A stretch of 64,000 nt of DNA from an uncultured Gemmatimonadaceae bacterium (GCA_963757185.1 CAVWQI010000003.1:1-64000), one strand, 5' to 3'. Numbered from the stretch's first letter, positions 6,228 through 41,930 are shown. A program made the numbers and translations. Notes: generated by a model not told the origin, from the sequence alone.

Positions 6228-6343
6228 GCGAGCGTGCCGTGGGGGGCGGCGAAATCGTCAATCCGAAGCGAGGATCGCGGACTGGCAAACGAGCTCGGTC
6301 TCGAGCATGAGCATGAGCGGGAGCCGCGAGCTACAGCATCCAT

Positions 6344-6380
6344 AAGGCGCGCCGACGGTTGGCGCGCCTTAATGATTTCG
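6344..6380 (+). terminator. candidate rho-independent terminator after uxuA
   Basis: Perfect 10-bp GC-rich stem AAGGCGCGCC/GGCGCGCCTT with a 7-nt loop, followed by the T-rich stretch AATGATTT. It lies about 115 nt after the uxuA stop. Confidence 0.4.
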
Positions 6381-6430
6381 GGCCCGAATGCCGAAACTCT
6401 GAAGGCGATTTCCCCTTTTCCGACGACGAA

Positions 6431-8263
6431 ATGGCCGCACCGCAAATCACACAAGACCGGCTGGGCGACATGCTCGTGCGTGAGGGGTTGATCACGCGCG
6501 AGCAGTTGTCCAAGGCGTTGGCGGAGCAGAAGCAGAGCGGGCAACGGCTCGGCTATACGCTCGTGAAGATGGGCATCCTGCCCGAGATCGACCTCACGAA
6601 AGTGCTGGCGAAGCAGCATCGCATGCCGGCCGTCGATCTCTCGCGATTCGAGGTCGATCCGAAGATCGCGAAGATGATTACCGCGGAACTCGCCCAGAAG
6701 CATCTGGTGATGCCGCTCAAGCGCGAGGGACGATCGCTGACCGTCGCGATCGCCGACCCGTCGAACCTCGTCGTGCTCGAGGACATCAAGTTCATCACGC
6801 GGTGCGACATCATCCCGGTGGTGGCCGGCGAGTACACGCTGGCGACGATGGTCGAGAAGGTCTTCGGCTCGACGGACGACCAGCAGATGGCGTCGTTGAT
6901 GGACACCATCACCGAGCTCGAAGGCATCAACGACGTCGAGGTGTTGGAGGACGAGGAAGACGACGTCTCGCAAGCGGCCCTCCAGGCGCAGATGGAGGAC
7001 GCGCCCGTCGTCAAGCTGATCAACGCGATCCTCACCGACGCGGTGAAGCGAGGCGCGTCCGACATTCATTTTGAATGCTTCGAGCACGAGATCCGCGTCC
7101 GGTATCGCATCGACGGCGCGCTCCAGGAAGTCATGAAGCCGCCGCTCAAGCTCCGCGCGGCGCTCATCTCGCGGTTCAAGATCATGGCGATGCTGAACAT
7201 CGCCGAGCGGCGCGTGCCGCAGGACGGCCGCATCAAGCTGAAGATCGGCAACCGCGTCATCGACTACCGCGTGTCGACGCTGCCGACGCTGTTCGGCGAG
7301 AAAGTCGTGCTGCGAATTCTCGACAAGGGCAACCTGACGTTCGACCTCTCGACGTTCGGCATCGAGCCGCGCGCCGAGGCGGACCTCATGGAGGCGATCT
7401 CGAACCCGTACGGCATGGTGCTCGTCACGGGCCCGACGGGCTCGGGCAAGACGACGACGCTCTACTCGGCGCTCTCCAAGGTCAACCAGATGGACGTCAA
7501 CATCATGACCGCCGAGGATCCTGTCGAGTACAACCTGTTCGGCATCAACCAGGTGCTCGTGCGCACCGACATCGGGATGACGTTCGCCGCGGCGCTCAAG
7601 GCGTTCCTGCGGCAGGACCCGAACATCATCATGGTCGGCGAAATTCGAGATCTCGAAACGGGCGGCATCGCCATCAAAGCGGCGCTCACCGGCCACATGG
7701 TGCTCTCGACGCTGCACACGAACTCGGCGCCGGAAACGGTGACGCGTTTGTTGGACATGGGACTCGAGCCGTTCAACGTGGCGTCGGCGGTGAACCTCGT
7801 GCTCGCTCAGCGGCTCGTGCGGCGCATCTGCGCCAACTGCCGCACGCAGTACCAGCCGAGCCCCGAGGAGTGGGCGGCGCTCAAGGTCAAGCCGACGACG
7901 CCGCTGCGCGAGCTGCGGTTCACCGAAGAGGCGCTGATCAACGCCAAGGCAAAGGCGACCAAAGAGGCCGTTCCCTTTCTCGCGAAACTGAGCCTCGACA
8001 CGACGTTCGGCGAGCTGGGCTACTTCAAGGGAGCCGGTTGCGACACGTGCGCCGGAACGGGCCTCAAGGGGCGCCAGGGCGTGTACGAGGTCATGACGAT
8101 GACGCCGCACCTGCGAAAGCTCGTCATGCAGAACGTCGGCGCCGCGGAGATTCGCGAGGGGGCCATCGAAGAGGGAATGCTGACTCTTCGCATGGACGCG
8201 TGGCTCAAGGTGATGAAGGGAATCACCACCACGGAGCAGATGATCCGCGAAACGTCGGCGTAA
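6431..8263 (+). CDS. pilB: type IV pilus assembly ATPase PilB (GspE family)
   Basis: The ORF runs 6359..8263, with a likely ATG at 6431 (MAAPQITQDRLGDMLV). It has the GspE/PilB N-terminal domain, Walker A VTGPTGSGKTTTLY, Asp/His boxes, and a C-terminal tetracysteine motif (CANCRTQY...CDTCAGTG). Confidence 0.9.
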   Translation: MAAPQITQDRLGDMLVREGLITREQLSKALAEQKQSGQRLGYTLVKMGILPEIDLTKVLAKQHRMPAVDLSRFEVDPKIAKMITAELAQKHLVMPLKREGRSLTVAIADPSNLVVLEDIKFITRCDIIPVVAGEYTLATMVEKVFGSTDDQQMASLMDTITELEGINDVEVLEDEEDDVSQAALQAQMEDAPVVKLINAILTDAVKRGASDIHFECFEHEIRVRYRIDGALQEVMKPPLKLRAALISRFKIMAMLNIAERRVPQDGRIKLKIGNRVIDYRVSTLPTLFGEKVVLRILDKGNLTFDLSTFGIEPRAEADLMEAISNPYGMVLVTGPTGSGKTTTLYSALSKVNQMDVNIMTAEDPVEYNLFGINQVLVRTDIGMTFAAALKAFLRQDPNIIMVGEIRDLETGGIAIKAALTGHMVLSTLHTNSAPETVTRLLDMGLEPFNVASAVNLVLAQRLVRRICANCRTQYQPSPEEWAALKVKPTTPLRELRFTEEALINAKAKATKEAVPFLAKLSLDTTFGELGYFKGAGCDTCAGTGLKGRQGVYEVMTMTPHLRKLVMQNVGAAEIREGAIEEGMLTLRMDAWLKVMKGITTTEQMIRETSA

Positions 8264-8270
8264 ACTCAGG

Positions 8271-8321
8271 GCGGTGGACCGGTGGACCGGTGGACCGGTG
8301 GACCGGTAGACCGGTGGACGG
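8271..8321 (+). repeat. octanucleotide tandem repeat (CGGTGGAC)n, about 6 units
   Basis: Reads gcGGTGGACCGGTGGACCGGTGGACCGGTGGACCGGTAGACCGGTGGACgg. It starts 8 nt after the pilB stop. The same repeat family recurs at 47692, 48969 and 58679. Confidence 0.9.
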
Positions 8322-8628
8322 CACGCGCCCCGATGAGAGAAATCTCACGCGTTCCGAACCGCGAGCGGAAATGGCCGTGGCGGCGGGAATTCGCCTACAC
8401 TTCCGGCGCGCCGAGACCGAAACTTGTGATCGAGGGCTCCGGGCGCCGTGTTGGCGCCCACGTGCCCGGCGTCGATCGACGGCGCCGGGTACGAGGGTCC
8501 CGAGCATGACCCAACCGATCCGTTCGTCGTCCTTCTCAGGATGGGCGCCGGGGCCGTGGAACGAATCGTTCCAGCTCGCGGCCGGAGCGCCCACCACACA
8601 ACGCTCAAGCGGTTAAAGGCCGCCTTCG

Positions 8629-9795
8629 ATGACCCCATCGCCGTCGACACCTTCGTCGTCCAATCCTTCGGGCGTGAATCTCCGTCTGCTCCTCGAGGAG
8701 ATGATCGATCGGAATGCCTCCGATCTGCACGTCACCGCGGGCGAGCGGCCGAAGTTCCGCATCGACGGCGACATCACCAACTCGAACATCGAGGTGGTGA
8801 TGCAGCCGAAGGACACGCTGCAGCTCGCGTACTCGGTGCTCACGGAGAATCAGAAGAAACGGTTCGAGATGGAGGACGAGCTCGATTTCTCGTTCGGCAT
8901 CCAGAACCTGGCGCGTTTCCGCGGCAACTGCTTCAAGCAGCGCGGGTGCGTCTCGATGGTGATCCGGCAGATCCCGTTCAACATTCGCAGCTTCGAGGAC
9001 CTCGGCCTTCCCAAGGTCATCGCGGACCTGTCGGACCGTCCGCGCGGCCTGATTCTGGTCACCGGCCCGACGGGTTCCGGGAAGTCGACGACGCTGGCCG
9101 CGATGCTCGACCGGATCAACAAGCAGATGAAAGGACACATGATCACGATCGAGGATCCGATCGAGTTCATTCACAAGCATCAGTCGTGCATCGTCAACCA
9201 GCGCGAGGTCGGCTCCGACACCAAGAGCTTCCAAGCCGCGCTCAAGTACGCGCTCCGTCAAGACCCGGACGTCGTGCTCATCGGCGAAATGCGCGACCTC
9301 GAGACGATTCAGGCGGGACTGACGATCGCCGAGACGGGACACCTCGCGTTCGCGACGCTGCACACGAACAGCGCGGCCGAGGCGGTGAACCGCATCATCG
9401 ACGTCTTCCCCAGCCACCAGCAGTCGCAGGTCCGCGCCCAGCTCGCGTTCTCTCTCGAGGGCATCATCACGCAGACGCTTCTGCCCAAGATCGGCGGCAA
9501 GGGCCGCGCGATGGCGGCCGAGATTCTCGTCGTGACGCCCGCGATTCGCGCGCTGATCCGCGATGACAAGATCCACCAGATCTACTCGATGATGCAGTCG
9601 GGCAAGAAGTACGGCATGCAGACGATGAACGACGGGTTGTACAACCTCTATATGAGCAAGACCGTCTCGCTGGACGAGGTGCTCCGCGCCAGCCACGACC
9701 AGTCGGAGATCATGCGCATGATCGGCATCTCGCCCGAGGGCGACACGCCGGGCAAGCCGCAGCAGACGGCGGCCGCGGGGGCGGGAAGGCGGTAG
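8629..9795 (+). CDS. pilT: twitching motility ATPase PilT
   Basis: 388 aa. PilT N-terminal ASDLHVTAG motif, Walker A VTGPTGSGKSTTLAAM, and PilT-specific motifs (AIRALIRDDKIHQIYSMMQSG, GMQTMNDGLYNLY). Confidence 0.9.
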   Translation: MTPSPSTPSSSNPSGVNLRLLLEEMIDRNASDLHVTAGERPKFRIDGDITNSNIEVVMQPKDTLQLAYSVLTENQKKRFEMEDELDFSFGIQNLARFRGNCFKQRGCVSMVIRQIPFNIRSFEDLGLPKVIADLSDRPRGLILVTGPTGSGKSTTLAAMLDRINKQMKGHMITIEDPIEFIHKHQSCIVNQREVGSDTKSFQAALKYALRQDPDVVLIGEMRDLETIQAGLTIAETGHLAFATLHTNSAAEAVNRIIDVFPSHQQSQVRAQLAFSLEGIITQTLLPKIGGKGRAMAAEILVVTPAIRALIRDDKIHQIYSMMQSGKKYGMQTMNDGLYNLYMSKTVSLDEVLRASHDQSEIMRMIGISPEGDTPGKPQQTAAAGAGRR

Positions 9796-9901
9796 CGGAC
9801 GCGTTGATTTGGTGACGCGGCTCACGACCGGCGGCCCGTAATCTTCCGGCCGCCCCGGTCGTCTTACAGAGAGCAGATCAAGCAGCCATCTCGAGGGATC
9901 G

Positions 9902-11101
9902 ATGCCTCAATACACGTACACGGCGCGCGCGGTCAACGGCGAGCTCAAATCGGCGACGATCGACGCGCCGTCGCGCGACGACGTCATCAAGCAGCTCCGG
10001 CAGCTGAAGCTGAACGTCGTCAAGATCGACGAAGGGACCGCGAATCGAAAGAAGCGCGGCGGGTCGATCAAGATGCGCGACGTCGTCATCTTCACGCGGC
10101 AGTTCTCGACGATGATCAACGCGGGTCTCCCGCTCGTGCAAGCGCTGGACATTCTGGCGAACCAGAGCGAGAACCCCGCGCTCAAGGACGTGACGCGGCA
10201 GGTCGTGTTCGACGTCGAGTCGGGCAACACGCTGGCCGACGCCATGCGCAAGCATCCGCGGGCGTTCAGCGATCTGTACGTGAACATGGTCGCGGCGGGT
10301 GAGGCGGGCGGTATTCTCGACACGATCCTCATGCGCCTCGCCGTCTTCATGGAAAAGAACGACGCCCTCGTTCGGAAGGTGAAGGGCGCCATGATCTACC
10401 CGGGCGTGATCATCTCGGTGGCGGCGATCGCCATTACCGTGCTGCTCATCTTCGTGATCCCGACGTTCGAGACCATGTTCGCCAGCGCCAACATCGCGCT
10501 GCCGCTACCGACGCGAATCGTGATCGCCATCTCGCGCGGGCTGAAGAGCTATTGGTTCATCGTCCTCGGTGCCGCGGCGGGCATGTACTTCGCGATCCGG
10601 AACTACTACCGGACGGCCGGCGGAAAGCTGACGATCGACAAGCTCCTGTTGAAGATGCCGGTGCTTGGCGACGTGCTCCGCAAGTCAGCCGTGTCGCGCT
10701 TCACCCGCACGCTCGGAACGCTGATCTCGTCGGGTGTGTCGATCCTCGACGGCCTCGAGATCACCGCCAAGACGTCGGGCAACCGCGTCATTCAGGACGC
10801 GATCATGGAATCGCGCTCGTCGATCGCCGGCGGTGACACGATCGCCGCGCCGCTGAAGAAGTCCGCGGTCTTTCCGCCGATGGTGATCTCGATGATCGCG
10901 GTCGGCGAGCAGACGGGCGGCCTCGACGAAATGCTCACCAAGATCGCCGACTTTTACGACGAAGAAGTCGACGCGGCGGTGTCCGGCCTTCTCGCGCTGA
11001 TGGAACCGGTGATGATCGTGTTCCTCGGCGTGGTGGTCGGCGGCATGGTCGTCGCGATGTACCTGCCGATCTTCGACATGGTGAACGCGGCCGGCGCGTA
11101 G
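9902..11101 (+). CDS. pilC: type IV pilus inner-membrane platform protein PilC (GspF family)
   Basis: 399 aa. Two GspF-type repeats (NAGLPLVQALDILANQ... and SSGVSILDGLEITAKTSG...) and three predicted TM segments. Confidence 0.9.
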   Translation: MPQYTYTARAVNGELKSATIDAPSRDDVIKQLRQLKLNVVKIDEGTANRKKRGGSIKMRDVVIFTRQFSTMINAGLPLVQALDILANQSENPALKDVTRQVVFDVESGNTLADAMRKHPRAFSDLYVNMVAAGEAGGILDTILMRLAVFMEKNDALVRKVKGAMIYPGVIISVAAIAITVLLIFVIPTFETMFASANIALPLPTRIVIAISRGLKSYWFIVLGAAAGMYFAIRNYYRTAGGKLTIDKLLLKMPVLGDVLRKSAVSRFTRTLGTLISSGVSILDGLEITAKTSGNRVIQDAIMESRSSIAGGDTIAAPLKKSAVFPPMVISMIAVGEQTGGLDEMLTKIADFYDEEVDAAVSGLLALMEPVMIVFLGVVVGGMVVAMYLPIFDMVNAAGA

Positions 11102-12121: not shown

Positions 12122-12337
12122 CGGCGTAATAGCGATCGCCGTCGCTTTCGTAGTGAACAGAGCCCGTCGCGAAGATCGCGGCGGGTGCGCTCGTCGTCTG
12201 GCGGCTGGACGGATCGGAGGCCACAGTTCGCGACCAGCGCCGGACGTCTCTTCGACGGGGCGCGCGCGACTTTCGCGTGCGGGCGAAGGATTGTATCCTA
12301 ATCGCGCGCACGCGTCGCACACCCATCGGAGCCGGCC

Positions 12338-13352
12338 ATGTCACTCGGAAGCTTCTTCAAGAAGCAGTTCATCGACGTCATCGCATGGACTGAGGACGTC
12401 CCGGGAACGCTGCAGTTCCGCTACCCGATGCAGGACATGGAGATTCAGAACGGCGCGCAGCTCACGGTGCGCGAGTCGCAGATGGCGGTTTTCGTGAACG
12501 AGGGCGTCTTCGCCGACATCTTTTCGCCCGGCCTCTACACGCTCAACACGAAGACCCTTCCGCTGCTCACCAACCTGCGGAATTGGGACAAGCTCTTTCA
12601 GTCGCCCTTCAAGTCCGACATCTACTTCTATTCGACGCGGCAGCAGACCGGCCAACGGTGGGGCACGCCGATGCCGGTCACGATCCGCGACAAAGAGTTC
12701 GGCGCCGTCCGCCTGCGCGCCAACGGCATCTACTCCTACCACCTCACCGACCCGGCGGTCTTTCAGCAGAAGGTCGCGGCGACGCAGGCCCAGTACACAA
12801 CCGACGAGCTCGAGCCGCATCTGCGCAACGTGATCGTCGGCAAGGTGTCCGACGCGTTCGGGCAGAGCGGGGTCGCGTTCCTCGACATGGCGGGCAACAT
12901 CGACGAGCTGTCGGCGGCGATGCGGGCGCAGGTGGGGCCGCTGTTCTCCGACTTCGGGCTCGCGCTCGACACGTTCCAGGTCGAGAGCCTCTCGCTGCCG
13001 GACGAATTGCAAAAGCTGCTCGACCAGCGCATCGGCATGAACATGGTCGGCGACATGCGGCAGTACGCGCAATTCCAGGCGGCGCAGTCGATGCCGATCG
13101 CCGCGGCGAATCCCGGCGGCGGGGCCGGCATCGGCGCCGGACTTGGTGCCGGCCTCGCGATGGGGAAGGCGATGGCCGACGCGATTTTCCGGCGCGACTT
13201 CCGGCGCGACTTCCGGCGCGACCTCGCCGGCGCCGGGCGCATCGAACGCCGGTGCGGTGCCCTCCGCCGAGACGAAATTCTGCTCGGAGTGCGGCAAGCC
13301 GATCGCGCGGAGCTCGAAGTTCTGCTCCGAGTGCGGCGCGAAACAGGCGTGA
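12338..13352 (+). CDS. SPFH (band-7) domain protein of the YdjI type with C-terminal double zinc ribbon; frameshifted in this sequence
   Basis: ORF 12338..13714 encodes the SPFH domain (MSLGSFFKKQFIDVIAWTED...) and resembles B. subtilis YdjI. The expected C-terminal zinc ribbons (ETKFCSECGKPIARSSKFCSECGAKQA) lie in another frame (ORF 13143..13352). The switch falls at a TTTT run near 13195, followed by a 3x12-bp direct repeat. Confidence 0.7.
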
Positions 13353-13714
13353 CCGGCGTCGAGTGGGTCGTCGACGCGCGTGGGTGTGATCCATCGAAGC
13401 TGACCGACCGAGCTTCGTTGCAGGATCTGCTCGACGGCATCGTCGGCGACCTGTCGCTCAACGTCGTCGGCGAGCCGCTCTGGCACACGTTTCCGGGCGC
13501 GGGGGGCGTCACGGGATTGTGCCTGCTCTCCGAATCGCACCTCGCGATTCACACGTTCCCGGAGCATGGGTCGCTCTGCCTCAACGTGTTTTGTTGCCGT
13601 CCGCGCGGCGACTGGGACGTCGAGGCAAGACTCCGGCATCACGTGGCGGCGAGCGAAGTCGATGTAACGCGAATCGAACGCACTTACGCTGAGATGCCCG
13701 CCCCCCTCCCGTGA
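13349..13714 (+). CDS. speH: S-adenosylmethionine decarboxylase proenzyme (SpeH/SpeD small type)
   Basis: The tail of ORF 12338..13714 contains the AdoMetDC self-cleavage motif LSESHLAIHTFPE. A GTG at 13349 overlaps the upstream stop (GTGA) and gives about 122 aa (VTGVEWVVDARGCDP...). Confidence 0.8.
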   Translation: MTGVEWVVDARGCDPSKLTDRASLQDLLDGIVGDLSLNVVGEPLWHTFPGAGGVTGLCLLSESHLAIHTFPEHGSLCLNVFCCRPRGDWDVEARLRHHVAASEVDVTRIERTYAEMPAPLP

Positions 13715-15657
13715 CTCAACGAACGGCGGCCTGCCCGAATTGCGGCGCTGAGATCACTTTCCGCTGGTCGGGAGCGGTTCAGACGTCGTGCCCCGCCTGT
13801 CACTCGGTGCTCGTCCGTCACGACGTCGACCTCGAGCGGGTCGGCTCGGTCGGCGACGTGCCCCTCTCGATGTCGCGCATCCAGCTCGGCACGGAAGGGT
13901 CGTACAAGGGCAAACCCTTCGTGGTCGTCGGCCGAATCGTCTACGAGTACGAGCGCGGCCATTGGAGCGAGTGGCACATCCGCGTCGGCGACGGCGCCAG
14001 CGCGTGGCTGAGCGACGCGCAGACGGAATACGCGATCACGACGCAGGTCGACAACGCCGGCGCGCTGCCTGGGCCGGGCACCTGCACGCCCGGGCAGCAG
14101 ATCACTGTAGGCGGCGCGCCGTACAGCGTGGCGGTGGTCACGCATGCCTTGTACTCGGGCGTCGAGGGCGAGCTGCCCTTCGAGTACTGGGACAAGCTGC
14201 GCGTCGAATTCGTGGACCTCAAAGGTCCCGGCGACAGATTCGCGACCGTCGACTACAGCGATGCGGCGCCGGTGCTGTACACCGGTGAGTACGTCACGTT
14301 CGAGAGTCTGCAACTCAAGAACCTTCGCGACGCCGCTGACGACGCCGGCCCGCAAGTCACGGGGGTCAAAGGGCTCAATTGCCCGCAGTGCGGCGCGGCG
14401 ATCGAGCTCCGCAGCGGCCAGCTCGCGCAGACGGTCGTGTGTCCGGCGTGCACCGCCATTCTCGATGCGCGCGATCCGAATCTCGCCGTCCTGCAAAAGG
14501 CGCAGGACCGCCTCAATCGCGCGACGCCGGCGATCCCGCTCGGCACGACGGGAACCCTTGGGAACGAGCGCTGGCAGGCGATCGGGTTCCAACTGCGCGG
14601 CGTCGTGATCTCGGGAGTCACGTACTCCTGGCGCGAGTATCTCCTCTGGAACGCCGAACACGGCTTCCGCTATCTCACGGAATACGACGGGCATTGGAAC
14701 GACGTCGTCGTGCTCAAGGGCGCGCCGAAGGAGACGATGATCGCCGGCACTCCGCAGGCCGAATACAACGGGACGACCTTCAAGCATTTCCAGTCGGCGA
14801 CCGCCGAGACGTTCTTCGTGCTCGGCGAGTTTCCCTGGGAAGCGCGGACGGGCGACAAGGTCGAGGACGCGGATTTCGTCGCGCCGCCGTACATGTTGTC
14901 GTCGGAGCGCACGGCCGACGAAATCACCTGGTCGCTTGGCACCTACACGCCGCCGGAACGGATCGCCGAGGCGTTCAAGCTTTCGTCTCCGCTCCCGGCG
15001 CCGCGCGGCATCTTCGCCAATCAGCCCAATCCCCGGTCGGGCGCGGCCGGCGCGATGAAAGGGACGTTTTTCCTGTTGGCGGCGGCGTTGCTCGTGCTCG
15101 CCGTGACCCGATTCGTCACCGCGCGCAACGAGCCGGTGTTCACGCAGTCTTATGAGTATACGACAAACGGCGATTCTTCCGCCTACGTGACGCCCGTCTT
15201 CACGCTCGGCGGCCACACGTCGAACGTCGAGCTGGACATCCGCACGAGCCTGTCGAATGCGTGGGCGTTTTACAACGTGGCGCTGCTCGACGAGAACGGC
15301 GGCCCGGGGTTCGAGTTCGGGCGGGAGGTGTCGTACTACGCCGGCGTCGAGGACGGCGAGGCGTGGCACGAAGGATCGCCCGAGGACAAAGTCGTCCTGC
15401 CTTCCATTCCCTCCGGGCGCTACTACCTTCGCGTCGCGCTGGACCGGGACGCCGGTGCGCAGCCGTTCTCGTATACCCTGGCGGTGAAGCGCGACGTGCC
15501 GCGCGTCTGGCCCTTTCTCGCCGCGCTCGTGCTGCTGGCGCTGCCGGTGCTGTTCGCGGCGTTCAGCGCGGTGAACTTCGAGTACAACCGTTGGCGCGAG
15601 AGCGACCACCCGTGGGTAACCACGTCGTCCGATTCGGGCGACGACGACAGCGAGTGA
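13711..15657 (+). CDS. DUF4178 domain-containing membrane protein with two zinc-ribbon modules
   Basis: 648 aa with a GTG start overlapping the speH stop (GTGA). Two CxxC...CxxC ribbons (CPNCGAEI..CPACHS and CPQCGAAI..CPACTA) are each followed by a DUF4178-like domain. There are two TM helices. Confidence 0.75.
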   Translation: MTQRTAACPNCGAEITFRWSGAVQTSCPACHSVLVRHDVDLERVGSVGDVPLSMSRIQLGTEGSYKGKPFVVVGRIVYEYERGHWSEWHIRVGDGASAWLSDAQTEYAITTQVDNAGALPGPGTCTPGQQITVGGAPYSVAVVTHALYSGVEGELPFEYWDKLRVEFVDLKGPGDRFATVDYSDAAPVLYTGEYVTFESLQLKNLRDAADDAGPQVTGVKGLNCPQCGAAIELRSGQLAQTVVCPACTAILDARDPNLAVLQKAQDRLNRATPAIPLGTTGTLGNERWQAIGFQLRGVVISGVTYSWREYLLWNAEHGFRYLTEYDGHWNDVVVLKGAPKETMIAGTPQAEYNGTTFKHFQSATAETFFVLGEFPWEARTGDKVEDADFVAPPYMLSSERTADEITWSLGTYTPPERIAEAFKLSSPLPAPRGIFANQPNPRSGAAGAMKGTFFLLAAALLVLAVTRFVTARNEPVFTQSYEYTTNGDSSAYVTPVFTLGGHTSNVELDIRTSLSNAWAFYNVALLDENGGPGFEFGREVSYYAGVEDGEAWHEGSPEDKVVLPSIPSGRYYLRVALDRDAGAQPFSYTLAVKRDVPRVWPFLAALVLLALPVLFAAFSAVNFEYNRWRESDHPWVTTSSDSGDDDSE

Positions 15658-15661
15658 TGAA

Positions 15662-15853
15662 ATGATCGGCAAGACTCTGTATCTGATTCTCGGCCTGGTC
15701 GTTCTCGCGGGCACGGCGGCCGCCGAGTGGCGAGGGTGGGGAACGACCAGCGTGACCGAGGTGAAAGACGTGCCGCGCACCGTGCGCAACAATCCGGGCT
15801 CCTATCGCCCCCACTACATGTACCTGGGCTCCTCCTTCCGGCGGGGAAAATGA
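15662..15853 (+). CDS. small hypothetical membrane protein
   Basis: 63 aa with a single N-terminal TM (LYLILGLVVLAGTAAA). It sits tightly between the DUF4178 and DUF350 genes. Confidence 0.35.
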   Translation: MIGKTLYLILGLVVLAGTAAAEWRGWGTTSVTEVKDVPRTVRNNPGSYRPHYMYLGSSFRRGK

Positions 15854-15854
15854 A

Positions 15855-16073
15855 ATGACCGTCTTCGACAATCTGGGTTCGAACTTCATCTCGGCCGTCG
15901 TCTTCGCGCTGCTCGGCGTCGTTCTATTCGTCGTCGGCTTCATGATCTTCGACAAGATCACGCCGGGCAGTCTATGGAAGGAGCTGCTCGAGGATCAGAA
16001 CACGGCGCTGGGCGTCCTCATGGCGGGCGTGGCGATCGCCATCGCCATCATCATCGCGGCGGCGATTCATTGA
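15855..16073 (+). CDS. DUF350 (YjfL family) small membrane protein
   Basis: 72 aa. Two TM segments and the DUF350-like core LWKELLEDQNTALGVLMAGVAIAIAIIIAAAI. Confidence 0.7.
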   Translation: MTVFDNLGSNFISAVVFALLGVVLFVVGFMIFDKITPGSLWKELLEDQNTALGVLMAGVAIAIAIIIAAAIH

Positions 16074-17566
16074 CCGTCGCGCTGTTCCTGTCGGTCCTGT
16101 TGATCGCGGCGTGCGGGCTCGTTTACGAGCTCGTCGCCAGCGCGCTCGCCAGCTATCTGCTCGGCGACAGCGTCTTCCAGTTCTCGACCGTCATCGGGGC
16201 GTATCTGTTCGCGATGGGAATCGGCAGTTGGATGTCGCGCTACATCGGGCGGGGGCTCGTGGCGCGATTCGTCACCATCGAGCTGATGGTCGGCGTAGTG
16301 GGCGGCTTCTCGTCGATGCTGCTGTTTCTCGCCTTCGCCTACACGTCGGCGTTTCGATTGGCGCTCTACGCGATCGTCGTCGTGCTCGGCATCCTGGTCG
16401 GACTCGAGGTGCCGCTCCTGATGCGGATCCTCCGCGACAGGTTCGACTTCAAGGACGTGATCGCGAACGTCCTCACGTTCGACTACCTCGGCGCGCTCGC
16501 CGCCTCGCTGGCCTTTCCGATCCTCCTCGTACCGCATCTCGGGCTGGTCCGGTCGGCGATCCTGTTCGGGCTCGTGAACGCGGCGATCGCGCTCTGGTCC
16601 ACCTTCCTGTTCGCGAAGGTACTGCCGACGCGTCGCACTCTCCGCGCGGCGTCGGTGGCGGTGCTGGCCTTGCTCGGCGCGGGCATGGCGGCGGCGGGGA
16701 AGATCACCGACGAAGCCGAGGGCAACATCTACTCGGACGACGTCATCTTCGCGCGCGACACACGGTACCAGCGCATCGTGCTGACCGCGTGGAAGGACGA
16801 CCTGCGGCTTTTTCTGAACTCGCACCTCCAATTCAGCTCGCGCGACGAATATCGATACCACGAAGCGCTGGTGCATCCGGGGCTGTCGTCGCTGCCGGCC
16901 GCCAGACGCGTACTCGTGTTGGGCGGCGGCGACGGCCTGGCCGTTCGCGAGATCCTGCGTCATCCGAACGTGGAACACGTGACGCTGGTCGATCTCGATC
17001 CCGCGATGACGAAGTTGTTTTCGACGCATCCGCTGCTCACGCGCTTGAACGACCACGCGTTCGCCTCGCCGAAGGTACGGGTCATCAACGCCGACGCGTT
17101 CGTCTGGCTCGACGAGAACGCCGAGTCGTTCGACTTCGCCGTGGTGGACTTTCCGGATCCGGACAACTACAGCATCGGCAAGCTGTACACGACGGCGTTC
17201 TATCGCCTGTTGGCGAGACACATCACTCCGGGCGGATCGTTCGTCGTTCAGAGCACTTCGCCGCTGTTCGCGCGGCAGACGTTCTGGTCGATCGTCGAGA
17301 CGCTCAAATCGGCGGGGCTGAACACCTATCCGTATCACGTCTACGTGCCGTCGTTCGGCGAGTGGGGCTTCGTACTGGCCACGCACGGAGCGTACGCGAC
17401 ACCGAACGACCTGCCGAACGGACTGCGCTTCTTGACGACGGCCGCGGTGAGCGAGGCGTTCGAGTTTCCGCGCGACATGGCGCCCGTGGCCGCGCGCGCG
17501 AACCATCTGAACGACCAGATGCTCGTGCGCTACTACGGCGAAGAGTTCGACAAGATCAACCGGTAG
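16070..17566 (+). CDS. speE: polyamine aminopropyltransferase (spermidine synthase) with N-terminal multi-TM membrane domain
   Basis: A TTG start at 16070 overlaps the DUF350 stop (ATTGA). About 200 aa of TM helices are followed by the spermidine synthase fold (VLVLGGGDGLAVREIL..., VDFPDPDN, GGSFVVQSTSP). Confidence 0.85.
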   Translation: MTVALFLSVLLIAACGLVYELVASALASYLLGDSVFQFSTVIGAYLFAMGIGSWMSRYIGRGLVARFVTIELMVGVVGGFSSMLLFLAFAYTSAFRLALYAIVVVLGILVGLEVPLLMRILRDRFDFKDVIANVLTFDYLGALAASLAFPILLVPHLGLVRSAILFGLVNAAIALWSTFLFAKVLPTRRTLRAASVAVLALLGAGMAAAGKITDEAEGNIYSDDVIFARDTRYQRIVLTAWKDDLRLFLNSHLQFSSRDEYRYHEALVHPGLSSLPAARRVLVLGGGDGLAVREILRHPNVEHVTLVDLDPAMTKLFSTHPLLTRLNDHAFASPKVRVINADAFVWLDENAESFDFAVVDFPDPDNYSIGKLYTTAFYRLLARHITPGGSFVVQSTSPLFARQTFWSIVETLKSAGLNTYPYHVYVPSFGEWGFVLATHGAYATPNDLPNGLRFLTTAAVSEAFEFPRDMAPVAARANHLNDQMLVRYYGEEFDKINR

Positions 17567-17570
17567 CGTC

Positions 17571-19114
17571 GTGAAGCGGCGGGCGTTTCTGGGGATGTTG
17601 GCCGCGCCGCTCGTCGGGGTGCCGCTTGTCGCGCCGGCGCTCGTCGGGTTGAAGCGGAAGTCTCCACGGACGATCGCCGGCGGGTTCGTCGACGACGGCG
17701 GCGCGGTGGGCCACCGGCTTCGCGACGGAACACTGACCGGCGTGCGCGGGCCCGAGAAGCGCGTACCCATCGTGATCGTCGGTGGAGGAATGGCCGGGCT
17801 CAGCGCGGGGTGGGAGCTTCGCCGCCGGGGGGGGGCGCGTCCGACTTCGTGATTCTGGAGCTCGAATCGGTTGCCGGCGGCAACGCGCGCTCGGGCGAGA
17901 ACGAGGTCTCGGCCTATCCGTGGGCGGCGCACTACGTGCCGGTGCCGAGCGTCAAGTCGACGCTCGTGCGCGAGCTGTTCGAGGAGCTCGGCGTCCTGCG
18001 CGACGGCGCGTGGGAGGAGCGGTACCTATGCTTCTCGCCGCAGGAGCGTCTCTTCGCGCACGGCGAGTGGCACGACGGGATCGAGCCCGACTTCGCGCTC
18101 GACGCCGCGGGCCGCGCGGCGTTCAGCCGCTTCGACCAGTTGATCGCCGAGCATCGAGCGAGCGGCGAGTTCACGATCCCAATGGCGGACGGCGTGCGGC
18201 GCGACTCACCGCTGGACCGGGTTTCGATGGCTCAGTGGCTCGCGCAGCATCAGCTCGACGTTCCGGCGATGCGTTGGTACGTCGACTACGCGTGTCGCGA
18301 CGACTACGGCGCGCTGGCGAAGGACACGTCGGCGTGGGCCGGCGTCCACTATTTCGCGTCGCGGCCGCACGACGAACAGGGGCCGCTCACGTGGCCGGAG
18401 GGAAACGGCTGGATCGCCAAGCGACTGATCGCGATGCTCGCCGACCACATTCGGCCGGCGGAGCCCGCGGTACGAATCGAACGGTCGGGTGCAGGCGCGC
18501 GTTGGCGCGTGGCGACGACGAAGGGAACGTATCTCGCCGAGTCGGTGATCTTCGCCGCGCCGTCGTTCTTGGCACCGCACGTCGTCCCCGAGCTCGCGCC
18601 GCGCCGCGTGCCGCTGGTCTATTCGCCGTGGATGACCGCGAACTTGACGCTCGATCGGTTGCCGAGAGAACGAGGGCACGGTGCACCGCTTTCCTGGGAC
18701 AACGTCATCTACGATTCCCCCGCACTCGGCTACGTCGACGCGACGCACCAGTCGCTGCGCACGCACTCCGAGCGCGCCGTGTGGACGTACTATTGGTCGC
18801 TGGCCGATCGGGCGCCAGCGGACGGGCGGCGCGACCTGCTCGCGCTCACCTGGCGCGACTGCGTCGAACGCATCTTGGCGGATCTCGAGCGGGCGCACCC
18901 CGACATTCGTGAGTGCGTCTCGCGGATCGACGTCATGCGGCTCGGCCACGCGATGGTGCGCCCAGCGGTCGGATTTTTGGCGGCGACAGCGGATGTGGTC
19001 CGGCTCGCCCCACCCGGATTCCATCTCGCCAACTCGGACCTGAGCGGTCTATCTCTGTTCGAGGAAGCTCAGTTCCGCGGCGTCAGCGCGGCGCGGGCGG
19101 TTCTTGGGCGGTAG
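17571..19114 (+). CDS. Tat-secreted FAD-dependent flavin amine oxidase-like oxidoreductase; frameshifted at a G9 tract
   Basis: ORF 17571..17852 carries a twin-arginine signal (MKRRAFLGMLAAPLVG) and the dinucleotide fold VIVGGGMAGLSAGWELRRRGG. The protein continues in a different frame in ORF 17810..19114 (ASDFVILELESVAGGNARSGE...). The junction is a run of 9 G at 17827..17835. G10 or G7 would restore one frame. Confidence 0.7.
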
Positions 19115-19120: not shown

Positions 19121-19367
19121 CAACAGCAACTACTCAACGCAGAGACGCGGAGACGCAGGGGACTGCACACCGGGCCGGGCAGTCGCGCAATGAGCCGTGA
19201 TTTTTTGTGAAAGCCGCTCGGGGAGTATCAGAGCGTAGGGGGCAAAGGTCCGAAACCGAGAGGCCTCCCGAGCGGCTTCTTACCAAGCATTCATCCCGGC
19301 CCGTGCTGAGTGGAGGCTTGGCCGGAGCATTGACCCTCTGCGTCTCTGCGTTGAGCAGTTGTCGTTC
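19121..19367. repeat. MITE-like palindromic element, family 1, copy A (about 247 bp)
   Basis: Terminal inverted repeats CAACAGCAACTACTCAACGCAGAGACGC ... GCGTCTCTGCGTTGAGCAGTTGTCGTTC. The interior is also palindromic (GCCGCTCGGG ... CCCGAGCGGC). A second copy lies at 22122..22388. Confidence 0.7.
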
Positions 19368-27984: not shown

Positions 27985-28350
27985 CTATTCCGACTCGTCT
28001 TCCAGGACCCTTCTGCGGTAGCCGAAGGTCATTCTGCGAATGTCGATCGTCTCGGTCGAGTAGCGGTGCCAGTTTTCGTGAGACATCAGCTTGAGATCAC
28101 GAACGCTGATCAGGTGGTTTTCGGTCTCGCTCGCGGATTTGATCGACATATCGAGAAAACGCGCAAACTCGCGATTCGATTCCGACCCACATCCCTCAGC
28201 GATGTTGGTCGCAATGCTATCCGCAGCTCGCAAGAGCTGTGACCTCAGGTGCCCGTAGCCCAAGCGCCCGTAGTCAGCCGCGAGCTCGTGGAGCGCCATG
28301 GCCAGGGCGTGCGCCCTCCGCCAAATCTCGAGTCGCTTGAAGTCCCGCAT
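27985..28350 (-). CDS. four-helix-bundle protein (23S rRNA intervening-sequence protein family)
   Basis: The ORF runs 27985..28440. The likely start is MRDFKRLEIWRRAHALAMAL at 28350, giving about 121 aa. The family-typical N-terminus is M.DFKDLxVW. Confidence 0.7.
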   Translation of the reverse strand: MRDFKRLEIWRRAHALAMALHELAADYGRLGYGHLRSQLLRAADSIATNIAEGCGSESNREFARFLDMSIKSASETENHLISVRDLKLMSHENWHRYSTETIDIRRMTFGYRRRVLEDESE

Positions 28351-28537
28351 GCCCCACCGTACCTCATCCCGTGCGGCATGCGGCACCATTTTCTTCGGGC
28401 CCGCACCTTTCAACTGCTCAAAGCTCCTGCTCAAGCTCATGCTCGATGCAGGGCTCGCTCCCGCCGCGGCGATGCCGATCCCGCCGCGACGGCCCCCAAC
28501 GCTGGCGTCCTCGCCGTTTCACGAGCATTCTCTTGCT

Positions 28538-30605
28538 ATGCTACGCCTCTCCGTGCTCTCGGCACTCGCCGTCCTCGCCGTCACCTCATGCACCCGCTCG
28601 CAGCCGTCGCTGGCCGGGGACTGGGATGCTTACGTCGCCCTCGGCTCCACGCCCCTCCCGGGCTTCGAGGGCTGGCGTCGCATGGGTTTCGCCCACTTCG
28701 CCTCCGATACCAGCGGCATCACCGGCTCAATCCGTCGCCGTACGGGCGAACCGATGCTCGACCTCGCCCGCGCCGACGTCCGCGGCGACTCCGTCTTCAT
28801 CAGCGGCGCACGGAATCAGACTCTCGCCGCCACGTGGCACGGTGACACGCTCTCCGGTCTGATGCTCGCCGAAGGCAAGCCGAGTGGCAGGCGGTATCGG
28901 CTCGTTCGCCGGACGACGCCGTTCGTCGCCGAGCAGCAGTACCTGCTCTGGCCGGGGGCGGTGTCCGACTCGCAGTACGCGGTCACCGAGGACACGCTGG
29001 TCTTCATGAAGACCCGCGACGGCGCGAAGTTGGCGAGCTATGTCGCGCGGCCAGTTGGCAAGGGTCCGTTCGGCGTCGTCATGCAGCGCACGCCGTACAC
29101 GCGCATCCTCCATCCCGCGGGCCGATTCTGGGCGTCGCACGGCTACATCTTCGTCGCGCAGCACGTGCGCGGGCGCGATGTATCCGACGGCACCGACTTC
29201 GGCGACTACGACACCGATGTACGCGACGGCTACGACGCGGTCGAGTGGGCGGCGAAGCTGCCCGGCGCGAACGGGAGAGTCGGGCTGATCGGACACTCGG
29301 ACGAGGGGAGACTGGCGTGGTACGCGGCCGTGAGCGCGCCGCCTCATCTTGCGGCGTTCGCGCCGTCGGCGGCGAGCGGCGATCCGTGGCGCATCGTGCC
29401 GTACGAAGACATGGTGTTCTCGCCGATCAACGTCGATTGGGCGTGCCTCATGCGCGGCGCGCACGCTGCAGAACACGGCGGACCTCGACATCGGGTCGGC
29501 GCTCACGCACCTGCCGTTGATCGACTTGCCGCAGCGACTTGGCTGCGGCGACGTGCCGCTCTGGGACCGTTGGATCGCGCACCCGACACTCGACGCGTAC
29601 TGGCGCGCGCACGCCGTCACGACGAACGTCGCGAAGGTCCGAGCGCCCGTGCTCCAGATCGCCGGCTGGTACGACGACTCGCGCGGTCCGATCGACTACA
29701 CGAACGCGCTGCTCGCCGTGCCGAACCATCCGCTCGTTCGGCTGGTGATGGGACCCGGCGCGCACAAAGGCGTCGACTACGTGAGCGGCGAATTCGGCCC
29801 GCAGTCGCGCGTCGACACGCGCCGTCTTCAGCTGCGGTGGTTCGACCACTATCTACTCGGCAAGGACAACGGCGTCGACAAGGAGCCGCCCTTCGACGAC
29901 TTCGTCTTCGGCGACAACACGTGGCGGAAGGAAGCCGCCTGGCCGATCGCGCGCGCGGTGCCGACGAAGTGGTACGTGTCGTCGGCGGGTGCGGCGAACA
30001 CGAGCGCCGGCAACGGCACGCTCGACACGATTCCGCCGACCGGAGCGGCCGTCGACACGTTCACCTACGATCCGGCGAACCCCACGCCGTTCCTGATCGA
30101 CTCGCGCGAGCTCGAGGAGTCCCTCAACGAGGATTATGCGTCACTCAACGCATCGCGGCGCGACGAGCTCGTGTTCACGTCGAAGGCGCTCACCAAGCCG
30201 GTCGAAGTGACGGGGCAGATGTCGGCGACGCTCTGGGCCGCCACCGACGCCAAGGACACCGACTGGAACGTGATGCTCCTCGACGTCTTTCCCGACGGCC
30301 ACGCGGAGCGCGTGCAGGACGGCCCGATGCGCGCGCGATTCCGCAAGGGATTCGACAAGGAAGTGCCGCTCACTCCTGGAAGCGTCGAGCAGTACGACCT
30401 CGACCTCTGGTTCACGTCGCGCGTGTTCGAGCCCGGACACAAGATTCGCGTGACGGTATCGTCGTCCTTCTTTCCGAAGTACGACCGCAACCTCAACACC
30501 GGCGGCAACAACGAGCGCGATAGCACGTTCGTGGTCGCGCATCAGAAGCTGCTGCACGACGCCGCGCACCCGAGCCACGTCGTCCTGCCCGTCATTCCTC
30601 GATGA
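28538..30605 (+). CDS. CocE/NonD family hydrolase (X-Pro dipeptidyl-peptidase S15 type) lipoprotein; frameshifted
   Basis: The signal begins at ATG 28538 (MLRLSVLSALAVLAVTSC). The N-terminal alpha/beta hydrolase part is in the frame of ORF 28298..30523; the C-terminal part is in ORF 29349..30605. The frames switch inside the GC-repeat GCGCGGCGCGCACG near 29452..29466. Confidence 0.8.
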
Positions 30606-32363: not shown

Positions 32364-33594
32364 CTACGTCGGGATCTTCAGCATCTTTCCCATGAACAGG
32401 ATCGTGCCGGTCTGACGCTCGCGAATCACGAAGATGAACGGGTGATCGACGCGGAACTCACGGGCCGCGGTGACCGTGACGCCGGTGACCGTCGACGCGC
32501 CGGCGGTAGTCCCGGTCTCGTCCACAGTCACAAAGGCCTTTTGCTTGACGAACGACAGCTGCAGCGGCTGAGACGACATCCCCGAGAAGTTCGCCTGATC
32601 GGTGAACGCCACGCCCATGCCGAGCGCCGAGAGGTCGTCGGTGAGCATGCGGTCGTAGGACATCGTGAACTTGGGCATCGCGAACTTGTTCGTCCGTGTC
32701 CTGGAGGCTCGCGATCAACGCCGCCCACGTGGTCGCGTTCAGCTGCGCGGCGATCGAGTCGATGCTGGCCGTTTGGCCGAATCCCGCCAGCACGATGTCC
32801 ATCGCGAACGCTCCGTTCCCGTACGGAAGCTCGGCGATTCTTAGCTGCTGCGTTCCTCCGGTGCGAAACAGCGGCTTCATGTTCTCGGGGCGATTCATGA
32901 ACGGCACGGTCTGCACCGTCCCGTCCGCGGCGTTGAACGACGACGGGGCGGTTGCCTTCGGGTCGAACTGGTACTGCCACGTGCCCTTGAAGTAGATGGC
33001 GTTGATGAGGAACATCACTTCTTCCGGCTTGATGTCGTCGAGGATCGTCGGGATCCTGCCGCCGGTGTGCGAGCTGACCCAACCGTTGATCGTCGAGAGC
33101 GACCCCGGGACGTTCGCGAAGTCCAGCCCCTGCGCCTGGGCGTCGAAGTACTTCTTTGTCGTGTCGAGGAACGGTTGCTTGAAGGAGAACGTGTTCCGAT
33201 ACCAGACCGAGTTGGCGATCTGGAACGTCGTCGTCGGGTCGAGACCGCGAAGCAGTCCGATGAGGCCCTGGTAGCCCGCGTCGAGTTGCCCCACGTCGCC
33301 GGAATCGAGCCGCAAAGCGGCTCGCATCGCATCGAAGGTCGAACCCGAGGCGCCGTTCATCGCCATGCCGAGCGACATCGACGCGCTCAGAGGCGAGATG
33401 AACACGTTGTTCCCGGCGTCCGTCTTCGCGACCCGCTGGAAGAGCGCGAACGAGAAGTCGTTGCCGGAGGTCGCTACGCGCTGCTCGGAGGGGTCGAGCG
33501 TGAAGGAAGGAGGGGGTTGGGGCCCGCCCACGTCGGAACACGCGGCCGCGGCCAGCGCCGCCGCTACGAACAGGATTCGACGATCAACCTTCAT
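32364..33594 (-). CDS. serpin family protease inhibitor (secreted); frameshifted
   Basis: About 300 aa of the serpin N-terminus are in ORF 32458..33594 (lipoprotein-like signal; NVFISPLSASMSLGMAMNGA). The C-terminal reactive-centre loop and the signature FRVDHPFIFVIRE...GTILFMGK are in ORF 32364..32678. The frame switch is near 32681..32700. Confidence 0.8.
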
Positions 33595-33680
33595 GCGGAG
33601 CTCCTTGGCGAGGGCATTACCTGCCTAACCGGGCCGGCGCGAAAAAAGCCACTTCTCGCCCCCCCACGGATTCGCGTCCC

Positions 33681-41055: not shown

Positions 41056-41090
41056 CGTCCTCGACCACCCAAGCTCTTTCCCGGATACCT

Positions 41091-41930
41091 ATGCCCGCAC
41101 GCGCAATCGGCACTGCCACCATCTCGTTCGGCCTCGTCTCCGTTCCCGTGAGTCTCTATTCGGCCGCCGAATCGAAGGCCAACATCTCGTTCAACTTGCT
41201 CCACAAGAAGGACGGCGCGCGCCTCAAGCAGCAGTACATCTGCACGAAGGACAACGAGATCGTCACGCGAGACCAGATGGTGAAGGGGTACGAGTTCTCG
41301 AAGGATCAGTACGTCATCCTCACGCCGGAGGAGCTCAAGGCGCTCGAGGAGAAGGCGACGAACACGATCGACATCAGCGAGTTCGTTCCGCTGGCCAAGG
41401 TCGATCGCGAGTACCTCGACAAGACGTACTATCTCGGGCCGGACAAGGGCGGCGATCGTGCCTACCGATTGCTCGTCGCGGCGCTCGAAGAGACCGGCAA
41501 GGCGGCGCTCGGGCAGTATGCGGCGCGCGGTGCGCAGCACCTCGTGCTCCTTCGGCCGCTCAACGGCGTGATGGTGATGGAACAACTCCACTACGCCGAC
41601 GAGCTGCGCCCCACGACCCAGGTCGAGGTTCCGGAGGGAGCGGTGAAGCCCGCGGAGCTCAATCTCGCCAAGCAGCTCATCGAGCAGTCGGCGAGCGACG
41701 ACTTCGTCCCCGAGAAGTACAAGGACACGGTCCGCGAGCGGCAGCTCGAGGCGATCGAAGCGAAGGTCCAGGGTCAGGAGATCACCGAGGAGGCGCCGGC
41801 GGAGCGCGGCGGCAAGATCATCGACCTCATGGAAGCCCTCAAGGCGAGCCTCACCGAGGCGAAGGCGGCGAACAAGGAAGACGAAGAAGAGGAGAAGCCT
41901 CACAAGAAGCGCCGGGCGAAGTCGGCATGA
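41091..41930 (+). CDS. ku: Ku protein (NHEJ DNA end-binding)
   Basis: The ORF runs 40941..41930. An ATG at 41091 gives MPARAIGTATISFGLVSVPVSLYSA, a canonical bacterial Ku N-terminus. The C-terminal tail is Lys/Glu-rich. Confidence 0.9.
   Translation: MPARAIGTATISFGLVSVPVSLYSAAESKANISFNLLHKKDGARLKQQYICTKDNEIVTRDQMVKGYEFSKDQYVILTPEELKALEEKATNTIDISEFVPLAKVDREYLDKTYYLGPDKGGDRAYRLLVAALEETGKAALGQYAARGAQHLVLLRPLNGVMVMEQLHYADELRPTTQVEVPEGAVKPAELNLAKQLIEQSASDDFVPEKYKDTVRERQLEAIEAKVQGQEITEEAPAERGGKIIDLMEALKASLTEAKAANKEDEEEEKPHKKRRAKSA

Follow-up and report, generated by a model that had tools for sequence, protein, structure and literature searches.

A seven-gene operon with AdoMet decarboxylase, membrane-fused SpeE, DUF350 and DUF4178 in an uncultured Gemmatimonadaceae bacterium

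Described operons and the Gemmatimonadaceae locus

Bacterial operons that associate a seven-transmembrane (7TM)-Spermine_synth fusion with YjfL/DUF350, a small lipoprotein and DUF4178 have been described by Ravi et al. (2024; PMC11237479), who also describe the Band-7 plus zinc-ribbon protein of the Bacillus subtilis YdjI type, present variants of the family with Band-7, S-adenosylmethionine (AdoMet) decarboxylase and polyamine oxidase genes, and propose that these systems either "monitor polyamine concentration" or carry out "aminopropylation of other substrates". Li et al. (2019; Biochem J 476:2579) is the work that they cite for the linkage with AdoMet decarboxylase (AdoMetDC) and for the idea that substrates besides putrescine are aminopropylated. 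Here we analyze a cluster of seven genes at positions 12338..19114 of a 64,000-nucleotide stretch of DNA (the window in what follows) from an uncultured Gemmatimonadaceae bacterium (GCA_963757185.1, CAVWQI010000003.1:1-64000). The cluster is a member of this AdoMetDC / TM-SpdSyn / DUF350 / DUF4178 operon family, in which it has a particular seven-gene arrangement. Our preferred reading, to which we give an even chance, is that the seven genes form one translationally coupled operon for a membrane-embedded aminopropylation module. The general idea of an aminopropyl module associated with the membrane or envelope was already present in an initial annotation of the window and holds up, the active sites of both SpeH and SpeE being retained. 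The same annotation had called the DUF components functionally undescribed, but the cluster itself is not undescribed, since its gene-neighborhood family had been defined by Ravi et al. (2024) and, as cited there, by Li et al. (2019); it had also proposed polyamine synthesis or modification, of which synthesis is the less likely reading, Ravi et al. (2024) raising aminopropylation of substrates beyond putrescine. Our survey of the literature found no report identifying the acceptor or the product of operons with the membrane-fused SpeE.

The features that distinguish the family were all found in the window: the fusion of a multi-pass transmembrane (TM) region with a SpdSyn (spermidine synthase) domain, DUF350 and DUF4178 genes lying within the operon with gaps of ≤4 nt, an AdoMetDC of class 1b and, as the first gene, a Band_7_1 protein, Band-7 being the alternative of the family to a PspA-CesT/Tir dyad. 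As far as they are presented by Ravi et al. (2024), the clusters of Li et al. (2019) similarly have a class 1b AdoMetDC adjoining a membrane-fused SpdSyn-like domain, with DUF350 alongside and a function proposed outside normal polyamine synthesis, but they are called major facilitator superfamily (MFS)-type, whereas the TM domain of the window has no MFS homology in Pfam. Group 2 of Ravi et al. (2024), represented by the SO_3763-3767 type of Shewanella oneidensis, comprises a Ctha_1186 lipoprotein, YjfL/DUF350, TM-Spermine_synth, CesT/Tir, PspA, DUF4178 and a ribbon-helix-helix (RHH) regulator. The window shares with it DUF4178 and the gene order of small exported protein, DUF350 and TM-SpeE; in contrast, it lacks the CesT/Tir-PspA dyad, the RHH regulator and the lipobox Cys, it adds SpeH, a Band_7_1 zinc-ribbon protein and a putative Tat (twin-arginine) oxidase, and its DUF4178 is duplicated, fused and equipped with two TM helices and a presumably periplasmic sandwich. 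Group 3 of the same authors is organized around an ATP-grasp (YjfC/GspS-like) ligase and DUF350, with a Band-7 + 2TM + SHOCT protein, AdoMet decarboxylase and polyamine oxidase. Here the common elements are a Band-7 protein replacing the PspA dyad, AdoMetDC, a polyamine-oxidase-like gene and DUF350, whereas the ATP-grasp ligase, DUF1190, DUF2491 and K+ channel are absent from the window and its Band-7 protein is of the Band_7_1 plus zinc-ribbon type, not of the 2TM + SHOCT type.

Two other systems deserve comparison. In the pspA-ydjGHI (samGHI) operon of B. subtilis, SamG and SamH (YdjG and YdjH), both located in the membrane, recruit YdjI/SamI, an SPFH protein of the cytosol; the latter has the same Band_7_1 SPFH domain with C-terminal zinc ribbon as the first protein of our cluster, and YdjG resembles the membrane partner encoded in the window in having two zinc ribbons plus TM segments. 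The window differs in lacking PspA and the TPM-domain protein YdjH, in the domain of the partner, which is DUF4178 rather than NTF2/YpeB-like, and in possessing polyamine-type enzymes, none of which is reported for the Bacillus operon. In Pseudomonas aeruginosa, PA4773-PA4774 (speD2/speE2) form a surface polyamine system regulated by PmrAB, whose product acts at the envelope. The likeness lies in the dedicated SpeD/SpeE pair; SpeE2, however, is soluble, and its system is not known to include DUF350, DUF4178, an SPFH protein or a Tat oxidase.

The window has about 66% G+C and spurious open reading frames (ORFs) are therefore common in it, so that the genes were fixed by combining ORF lists, frame plots of G+C at third codon positions (GC3), profile searches and orthologues. 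From the ORF listing and the junction sequences, seven genes of the + strand fill the region, as follows:

12338..13352, + strand: SPFH gene; Band_7_1 protein of YdjI/SamI type with Gly/Ala-rich linker and C-terminal zinc ribbon, frame-broken here
13349..13714, + strand: speH, GTG start; proenzyme of a class 1b pyruvoyl S-adenosylmethionine decarboxylase, 121 aa
13711..15657, + strand: fused double DUF4178 gene, GTG start; 648 aa
15662..15853, + strand: small ORF; 63 aa, with a signal-peptide-like N-terminal segment
15855..16073, + strand: DUF350 (YjfL-type) gene, single repeat; 72 aa, two TM helices
16070..17566, + strand: TM-SpeE fusion gene, TTG start; 498 aa, seven-helix domain (residues 1-215) plus SpeE domain
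17571..19114, + strand: flavin amine oxidoreductase gene, GTG start; twin-arginine (Tat-type) N-terminus, frame-broken here

Consecutive genes overlap by GTGA at 13349-13352, by GTGA at 13711-13714 and by ATTGA at 16069-16073; the remaining gaps measure 1-4 nt, all six junctions being either overlaps or gaps of ≤4 nt. The seven same-strand genes and the three overlaps had been noted in the initial annotation and were found again in the ORF list and junction sequences, and each of its family assignments has a Pfam match, which for the SPFH protein and the oxidase appears after frame correction.

Proteins of the operon and their conservation

Aligned with its relatives, the 498-aa fusion presents an intact aminopropyltransferase active site. 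Its residues 261-437 match Pfam Spermine_synth (3.4e-35), and its full length matches the NCBIfam model NF002956 (PRK03612, "polyamine aminopropyltransferase") with 681.7 bits against a cut-off of 472. The nearest solved relatives of the SpeE domain are the SpeE of Thermus thermophilus (1UIR/3ANX), a triamine/agmatine aminopropyltransferase, and plant thermospermine synthase (6BQ2), with E values of 1e-32 to 1e-29 in phmmer and about 1e-13 to 1e-14 in Foldseek; the GGG(D/E)G and DxxDP motifs align at an overall identity of ~28-32%, but the relatives are soluble, without membrane domain, and the window has DFPDP versus DLTDP. Residues G285-G289 (GGGDG), D308, D342, D360 and D363 align with those of T. 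thermophilus SpeE, and the loss of the catalytic aspartates, which had been indicated beforehand as an observation that would refute the interpretation as a polyamine module, is not seen. Among 83 close and 41 distant homologues, these donor-binding and catalytic residues show little or no variation; in an alignment of 42 sequences, comprising the window and 41 diverse representatives, they are kept in 37-41.

The first ~215 residues of the fusion contain seven hydrophobic helices, in agreement with the multi-TM N-terminal domain of about 200 aa that had been annotated. In the same set of 42 sequences, these helices carry conserved intramembrane carboxylates: E20 (38/42), E71 (34/42, with Q in 7), E113 (40/42) and D138 (42/42). 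Outside proteins of ~500 aa, of which it makes up the N-terminal part, the domain is essentially not found; taken alone, it forms ~2,400 clusters at 50% identity. The NCBIfam model NF037959, "fused MFS/spermidine synthase", is matched with 50.7 bits (cut-off 40), but this model also contains the SpdSyn domain; a Foldseek search with the predicted structure of the fusion returned matches for the SpeE domain only and nothing for the membrane domain.

To evaluate topology, Lys plus Arg (K+R) residues were counted in the loops of the membrane domain for the 83 close and 41 diverse homologues. The N-terminus together with loops 2-3, 4-5 and 6-7 has a summed K+R of ~10, as against ~1-2 for loops 1-2, 3-4 and 5-6; helix 7 is hydrophobic (median best 19-mer on the Kyte-Doolittle scale, 1.94) and the segment following it is acidic. 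Combined with the positive-inside rule, this strong bias and the hydrophobic character of helix 7 predict a cytoplasmic N-terminus and a SpeE catalytic domain lying outside the cytoplasm, facing the periplasm, a prediction which is new here. The cysteine content that was considered as a sign of a periplasmic SpeE domain is uninformative (0.29% and 0.69% vs a background of 0.68%).

SpeH, which precedes the fusion in the pathway presumed for the module, matches Pfam AdoMet_dc (1e-22) and has no signal peptide. In alignments with T. maritima 1TLU and with 2III, the motif LSESH...IHT.PE...FCC is conserved, the stretch LSESHLAIHTFPE...VFCC corresponding to ISESHLTIHTWPE...LFTCG in 1TLU, and the self-processing and active-site motif (Glu-Ser cleavage site, His and Cys) is kept in 66 homologues. 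The score with TIGR03330, 63.7 bits, is under the cut-off of 75.65 for this equivalog of B. subtilis type, and SpeD homologues also include decarboxylases of Arg or Orn (PMC10407285). We infer the AdoMet specificity of SpeH from its operon linkage to SpeE. Being leaderless, the enzyme is expected to produce decarboxylated AdoMet (dcAdoMet) in the cytoplasm. This creates a puzzle in combination with the predicted position of the SpeE domain, which stands as an unexplained observation: either helix 7 is non-spanning or dcAdoMet crosses the membrane.

The DUF4178 protein matches Pfam DUF4178 in two stretches (1.6e-39) in addition to zinc ribbons, in the order zinc ribbon, DUF4178, zinc ribbon, DUF4178, TM helix, beta-sandwich, TM helix; the beta-sandwich enclosed between the two TM helices is probably periplasmic. 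Its C-terminus (15540-15657) shows the pattern FExxRWxESD followed by a short acidic tail of Ser, Asp and Glu, which recurs in 69/69 homologues, the last residue usually being D or E. Most Acidobacteriota have two DUF4178 genes (e.g. at 7687-9596 of locus L008, encoding 212 and 423 aa) that are fused in the lineage of the window; an exact-protein look-up of the fused form gave no record. The small ORF has no Pfam or NCBIfam match; it is a real gene, with a C-terminal Gly-Lys in all 78 homologues and the motif [RK]x[VIM]RxNPGx[YW]RxxY (VPxxVRxNPGxYRxxY in the window) in 70 of them. Position -1 is A, G or S in 38/38 homologues bearing an E[WY]RGW motif, and the predicted mature peptide has ~40 aa and is basic. 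The protein thus looks secreted through a Sec-type signal peptide. Its gene occupies the position of that for the Ctha_1186 lipoprotein in the Shewanella operon, of which, lacking the lipobox Cys, it may be the non-lipoprotein counterpart. DUF350 matches its Pfam profile with 5.5e-16, covering positions 2-65 of 133, and displays the conserved pattern DK.TP..LW.E.....N.AL...IIAAAIH; an apparent mention of DUF350 in a Pseudomonas proteomics paper was discarded as false, for it actually concerns DUF3509.

Regarding the gene at each end of the operon, the SPFH protein with one T removed matches Pfam Band_7_1 (1.8e-73) and Zn_Ribbon_1 (1.5e-6), and this succession of Band_7_1 and C-terminal zinc ribbon, which is the architecture of YdjI/SamI, is unbroken in the related loci L001 and L002. 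The initial annotation had connected the protein with PspA-associated operons: the homology to the YdjI type stands, and it is the only link with such operons, no PspA gene being present anywhere in the 64-kb window. YdjI/SamI is encoded together with PspA and its partners YdjG and YdjH, whereas neither PspA nor a TPM-domain gene is present in the cluster or the window; no CesT gene was found in the 64 kb, and upstream of clusters without SPFH there is no PspA or other substitute. The oxidase after frame correction belongs to the flavin amine oxidase superfamily, with Pfam matches to Amino_oxidase (1.5e-9; 38.1 bits vs a cut-off of 19.8; residues 74-511) and NAD_binding_8 (1.9e-10). It starts with MKRRAFLGMLAAPLVG, containing a (S/T)RRxF(L) twin-arginine motif with a moderately hydrophobic h-region behind it; a strict pattern detects the RR motif in 56/65 orthologues, and most others carry RR variants. 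The protein is thus predicted to be exported by the Tat system. Of the annotated Tat amine oxidase possibly acting on polyamines, the twin-arginine motif and the superfamily are retained, but the specificity for polyamines rests on gene context instead of sequence.

A scan of one genome per species recovered at least 599 stretches encoding this SpeE subfamily, the best 80 loci of which were annotated by tblastn; about 15 of the 80 are from Gemmatimonadota and most others from several orders of Acidobacteriota. Of the loci from other species, 62 could be assessed for the whole cluster, and 46 of these have all seven genes with the order unchanged, which bears out the co-occurrence of DUF4178, DUF350 and TM-SpeE that had been proposed for comparative genomic analysis; the arrangement is more than chance. 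Among assessable loci, DUF4178 is present in 76/77, the small ORF in 78/80, DUF350 in 80/81 and SpeH in 68/71, with SPFH in 56/64 and the oxidase in 63/73. DUF4178, the small protein, DUF350 and TM-SpeE hence constitute a core that is almost never separated and is frequently accompanied by SpeH, by the SPFH-zinc-ribbon protein and by the flavin oxidase with twin-arginine motif. The genes flanking the cluster differ among L001, L002 and the window, and the cluster is therefore a discrete unit, moving as a unit. The operon with membrane-fused SpeE also occurs in Mycobacterium tuberculosis, as Rv2601.

TM-SpeE is by far the most conserved member of the cluster: its length is almost always exactly 498 aa and its identity between Gemmatimonadota and Acidobacteriota is 65-76%, compared with medians of 44-60% for its operon neighbors, which points to either very strong constraint or recent transfer between the phyla. 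A typical cluster of the Acidobacteriota/Gemmatimonadota type was also seen on contigs L024, L074 and L078, labelled as metagenome-assembled genomes of Bifidobacteriaceae, Saccharimonadales and Arcobacter, which are probably mis-binned contigs.

Frame-broken genes and surroundings of the operon

Two genes of the cluster, those for SPFH and the oxidase, are frame-broken in the sequence as given, a fact that the initial annotation had overlooked. The sites involved are the following:

13187..13222, + strand: three tandem copies of the 12-nt unit TTCCGGCGCGAC in the SPFH linker, reading SGAT x3 in the true frame
17827..17835, + strand: G9 run, in which the oxidase frameshift (-1) lies; no homopolymer of the window is longer

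The SPFH break is of +1 and consists of one extra T in a T4 run at 13185-13188, directly before the three 12-nt repeats; the SPFH domain and its zinc ribbon consequently lie in different frames, and GC3 supports the frame switch. The extra T makes the N-terminal frame run into speH, forming one ORF of 458 aa (12338..13714). A genuine SPFH-SpeH fusion was rejected because the 55-aa bridge is out-of-frame zinc-ribbon sequence, GC3 tracks the other frame and the orthologues have separate genes. In the oxidase, N-terminus and body are in different frames and the break falls inside the G9 run. L084, a relative of the 97% class, reads CGA GGG GGG GGC in frame (A+G8) and the window is one base short, so that its run looks like G10 minus one base.

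Both frameshifts are most likely residual errors of sequence or assembly, since the relatives are intact and two unrelated genes of the window are also split. The orthologues of both genes are unbroken in L001 (93%) and L002 (86%), in which SPFH has 329 and 327 aa, respectively; that of the oxidase is also unbroken in L084. The two breaks are the only net frame-breaking indels in ~13 kb of sequence shared with L001, and neither occurs in any of >80 relatives. Elsewhere in the window, a Peptidase_S15/PepX dipeptidyl peptidase gene (28274-30605, + strand) is split near 29450 and a bacterial serpin gene (32364-33624, - strand) near 32700, in neither case at a homopolymer, suggesting an assembly-wide indel error of ~1 per 15 kb.

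The alternative is that both indels are real, as slipped-strand switches or early pseudogenization, and that the cluster is inactivated or phase-varied in this strain. We regard this as very unlikely, even if both indels lie at slippage-prone sequences (the T4 run with its 12-nt variable-number tandem repeat, and the longest homopolymer of the window) and fall within the 6.8-kb cluster. The copy number of TTCCGGCGCGAC does vary among relatives, being one in L001, three plus one extra nucleotide in the window and apparently two in L086, as deduced from indel lengths (12 nt more than L001). L086, however, is a syntenic contig, 92% identical, whose long-read assembly is visibly prone to error and riddled with 1-nt indels; moreover, the remaining five genes of the cluster are undamaged and the broken ones keep high GC3 and full-length similarity. 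Pattern scans of metagenomes for strain variants of the G run found none. Decay or phase variation specific to the cluster was rejected as the principal explanation, the peptidase and serpin genes being also split.

Outside the coding region, two features flank the operon:

12122..12337, + strand: presumed promoter region, 216-nt intergenic; the sole gap of >4 nt from the TonB_C gene (ending at 12121) to the end of the operon
19181..19210, + strand: weak hairpin resembling a terminator, with a T run behind it, 67 nt past the oxidase stop codon

A promoter probably lies in the former interval, in which a search for the sigma-70 consensus gave no match. The hairpin as operon terminator is only a suggestion: seven terminator-like sites were observed in the region against 5.3 expected by chance. 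Directly upstream of the operon, at 6317-11101, genes of type IV pilus or type II secretion system (T2SS) type, namely a PilB-like ATPase with MshEN domain, a PilT-like ATPase and a PilC/T2SSF protein, are followed by the TonB_C protein; this neighborhood is common to L086 in full and to L001 in part, but not to L002. Further downstream, a three-domain LigD (phosphoesterase, ligase and primase-polymerase; 38362-41930, - strand) is divergent from the adjoining Ku gene, with which it makes a complete bacterial pair for nonhomologous end joining.

Proposed function and its alternatives

The most likely activity of the module is to aminopropylate a non-canonical acceptor, either at the cytoplasmic membrane or outside it. 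The fusion would act at the membrane, where an amine, probably other than putrescine, would receive the aminopropyl group, and the membrane domain of the fusion would move or present a cationic partner, either the donor or the acceptor and product. Most of the chemistry would face the envelope, with the oxidase exported by Tat, the small protein by Sec, the DUF4178 beta-sandwich in the periplasm and the SpeE domain likewise placed outside by its charge bias; the exported oxidase could then oxidize the aminopropylated product, leading to its turnover or to aldehyde formation. On the cytoplasmic side, the zinc-ribbon and DUF4178 domains may recruit the YdjI-like SPFH protein as a scaffold, which is reasonable because SamG and SamH recruit YdjI/SamI in B. 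subtilis.

The view of the initial annotation was different, namely that an ordinary free polyamine such as spermidine, thermospermine or a long-chain form is made at the membrane, exported and then oxidized or recycled by the periplasmic oxidase. The intact active sites of SpeH and SpeE agree with it, the closest solved relatives, T. thermophilus SpeE and thermospermine synthase, are genuine polyamine aminopropyltransferases accepting longer amines, "polyamine aminopropyltransferase" is the name given to the family in NCBIfam, transport of polyamines would be a fitting task for the intramembrane carboxylates, and the nearest analogue would be the envelope-protective speD2/speE2 system of P. 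aeruginosa. Yet no gene for putrescine formation (ornithine decarboxylase, arginine decarboxylase or agmatinase) is present in the cluster or the window, and a free polyamine leaves without role the DUF4178, small and DUF350 proteins that are invariably linked to the fusion. In addition, species bearing the fusion reportedly have active AdoMetDCs and no spermidine, and a speE mutant of Escherichia coli is reportedly complemented neither by the fusion nor by its SpdSyn domain. Since it is also for "aminopropylation of other substrates" that Ravi et al. (2024) cite Li et al. (2019), as far as that work is presented there, we deem production of a free polyamine rather unlikely. Quite unlikely, in our opinion, is a system that senses or regulates the state of the membrane, in the sense of phage-shock and SPFH proteins, in which the SpeE-like and DUF4178 proteins would monitor polyamines or the membrane and recruit the SPFH scaffold, catalysis being secondary. 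Ravi et al. (2024) do suggest that such systems "monitor polyamine concentration", the SPFH-zinc-ribbon architecture is that of YdjI/SamI, a part of the membrane stress sensor complex of B. subtilis, and the DUF4178 protein crosses the membrane and has domains on either face of it. Against sensing as the primary role, strong purifying selection acts on all catalytic residues in the two enzymes, while PspA, a transcription factor or a kinase are not conserved parts of the cluster and are missing from the window; the histidine kinase adjoining the L002 cluster is not conserved, and SPFH itself is absent from 8/64 loci.

Several points weigh also against the aminopropylation module that we prefer. 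SPFH is missing from 8/64 loci and the oxidase from 10/73, i.e. about one locus in eight, and they are therefore not essential to the core, and no PspA gene is found nearby. Homology of the membrane domain with MFS transporters was considered and dropped for want of Pfam support (MFS_1, E = 4.5), and the AlphaFold2 model of the fusion is of moderate quality (pLDDT 72, pTM 0.52, with <56 in the linker). Helix 7 might be non-spanning, in which case the SpeE domain would be cytoplasmic, and we know of no precedent for a dcAdoMet-dependent enzyme outside the cytoplasm. The oxidase matches characterized flavoenzymes of PDB and NCBIfam in its FAD-binding N-terminus only, indicating a distant relationship. 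Finally, the steps of the scheme that go beyond intact active sites and export signals are all conjectural.

A more specific form of the aminopropylation module, which we hold only tentatively, would place the SpeE catalytic domain, the small peptide, the DUF4178 beta-sandwich and the flavin oxidase all on the periplasmic side, with the seven-helix domain carrying the dcAdoMet made by SpeH to its own fused domain. It is advanced because of the ~10:1 K+R bias, the hydrophobic helix 7 and the signal-peptide features of the small protein. The acceptor would then be an amine of the envelope, candidates being the ~40-aa peptide ending in Gly-Lys, a lipid or a cell-wall amine. If true, this would be the first extracytoplasmic aminopropyltransferase dependent on dcAdoMet, and it would account for the reported absence of spermidine in organisms carrying the fusion.

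In broader terms, the TM-SpeE operon is widespread, and in abundant soil phyla few sets of genes are more conserved. The analysis of the window contributes a clean seven-gene version of the operon, culturable carriers such as Roseisolibacter sp. H3M3-2 (locus L025) and Paludibaculum fermentans (locus L049), a testable prediction of topology and a candidate peptide partner. Finding the acceptor would define a new use of dcAdoMet, together with a new envelope modification or stress system.

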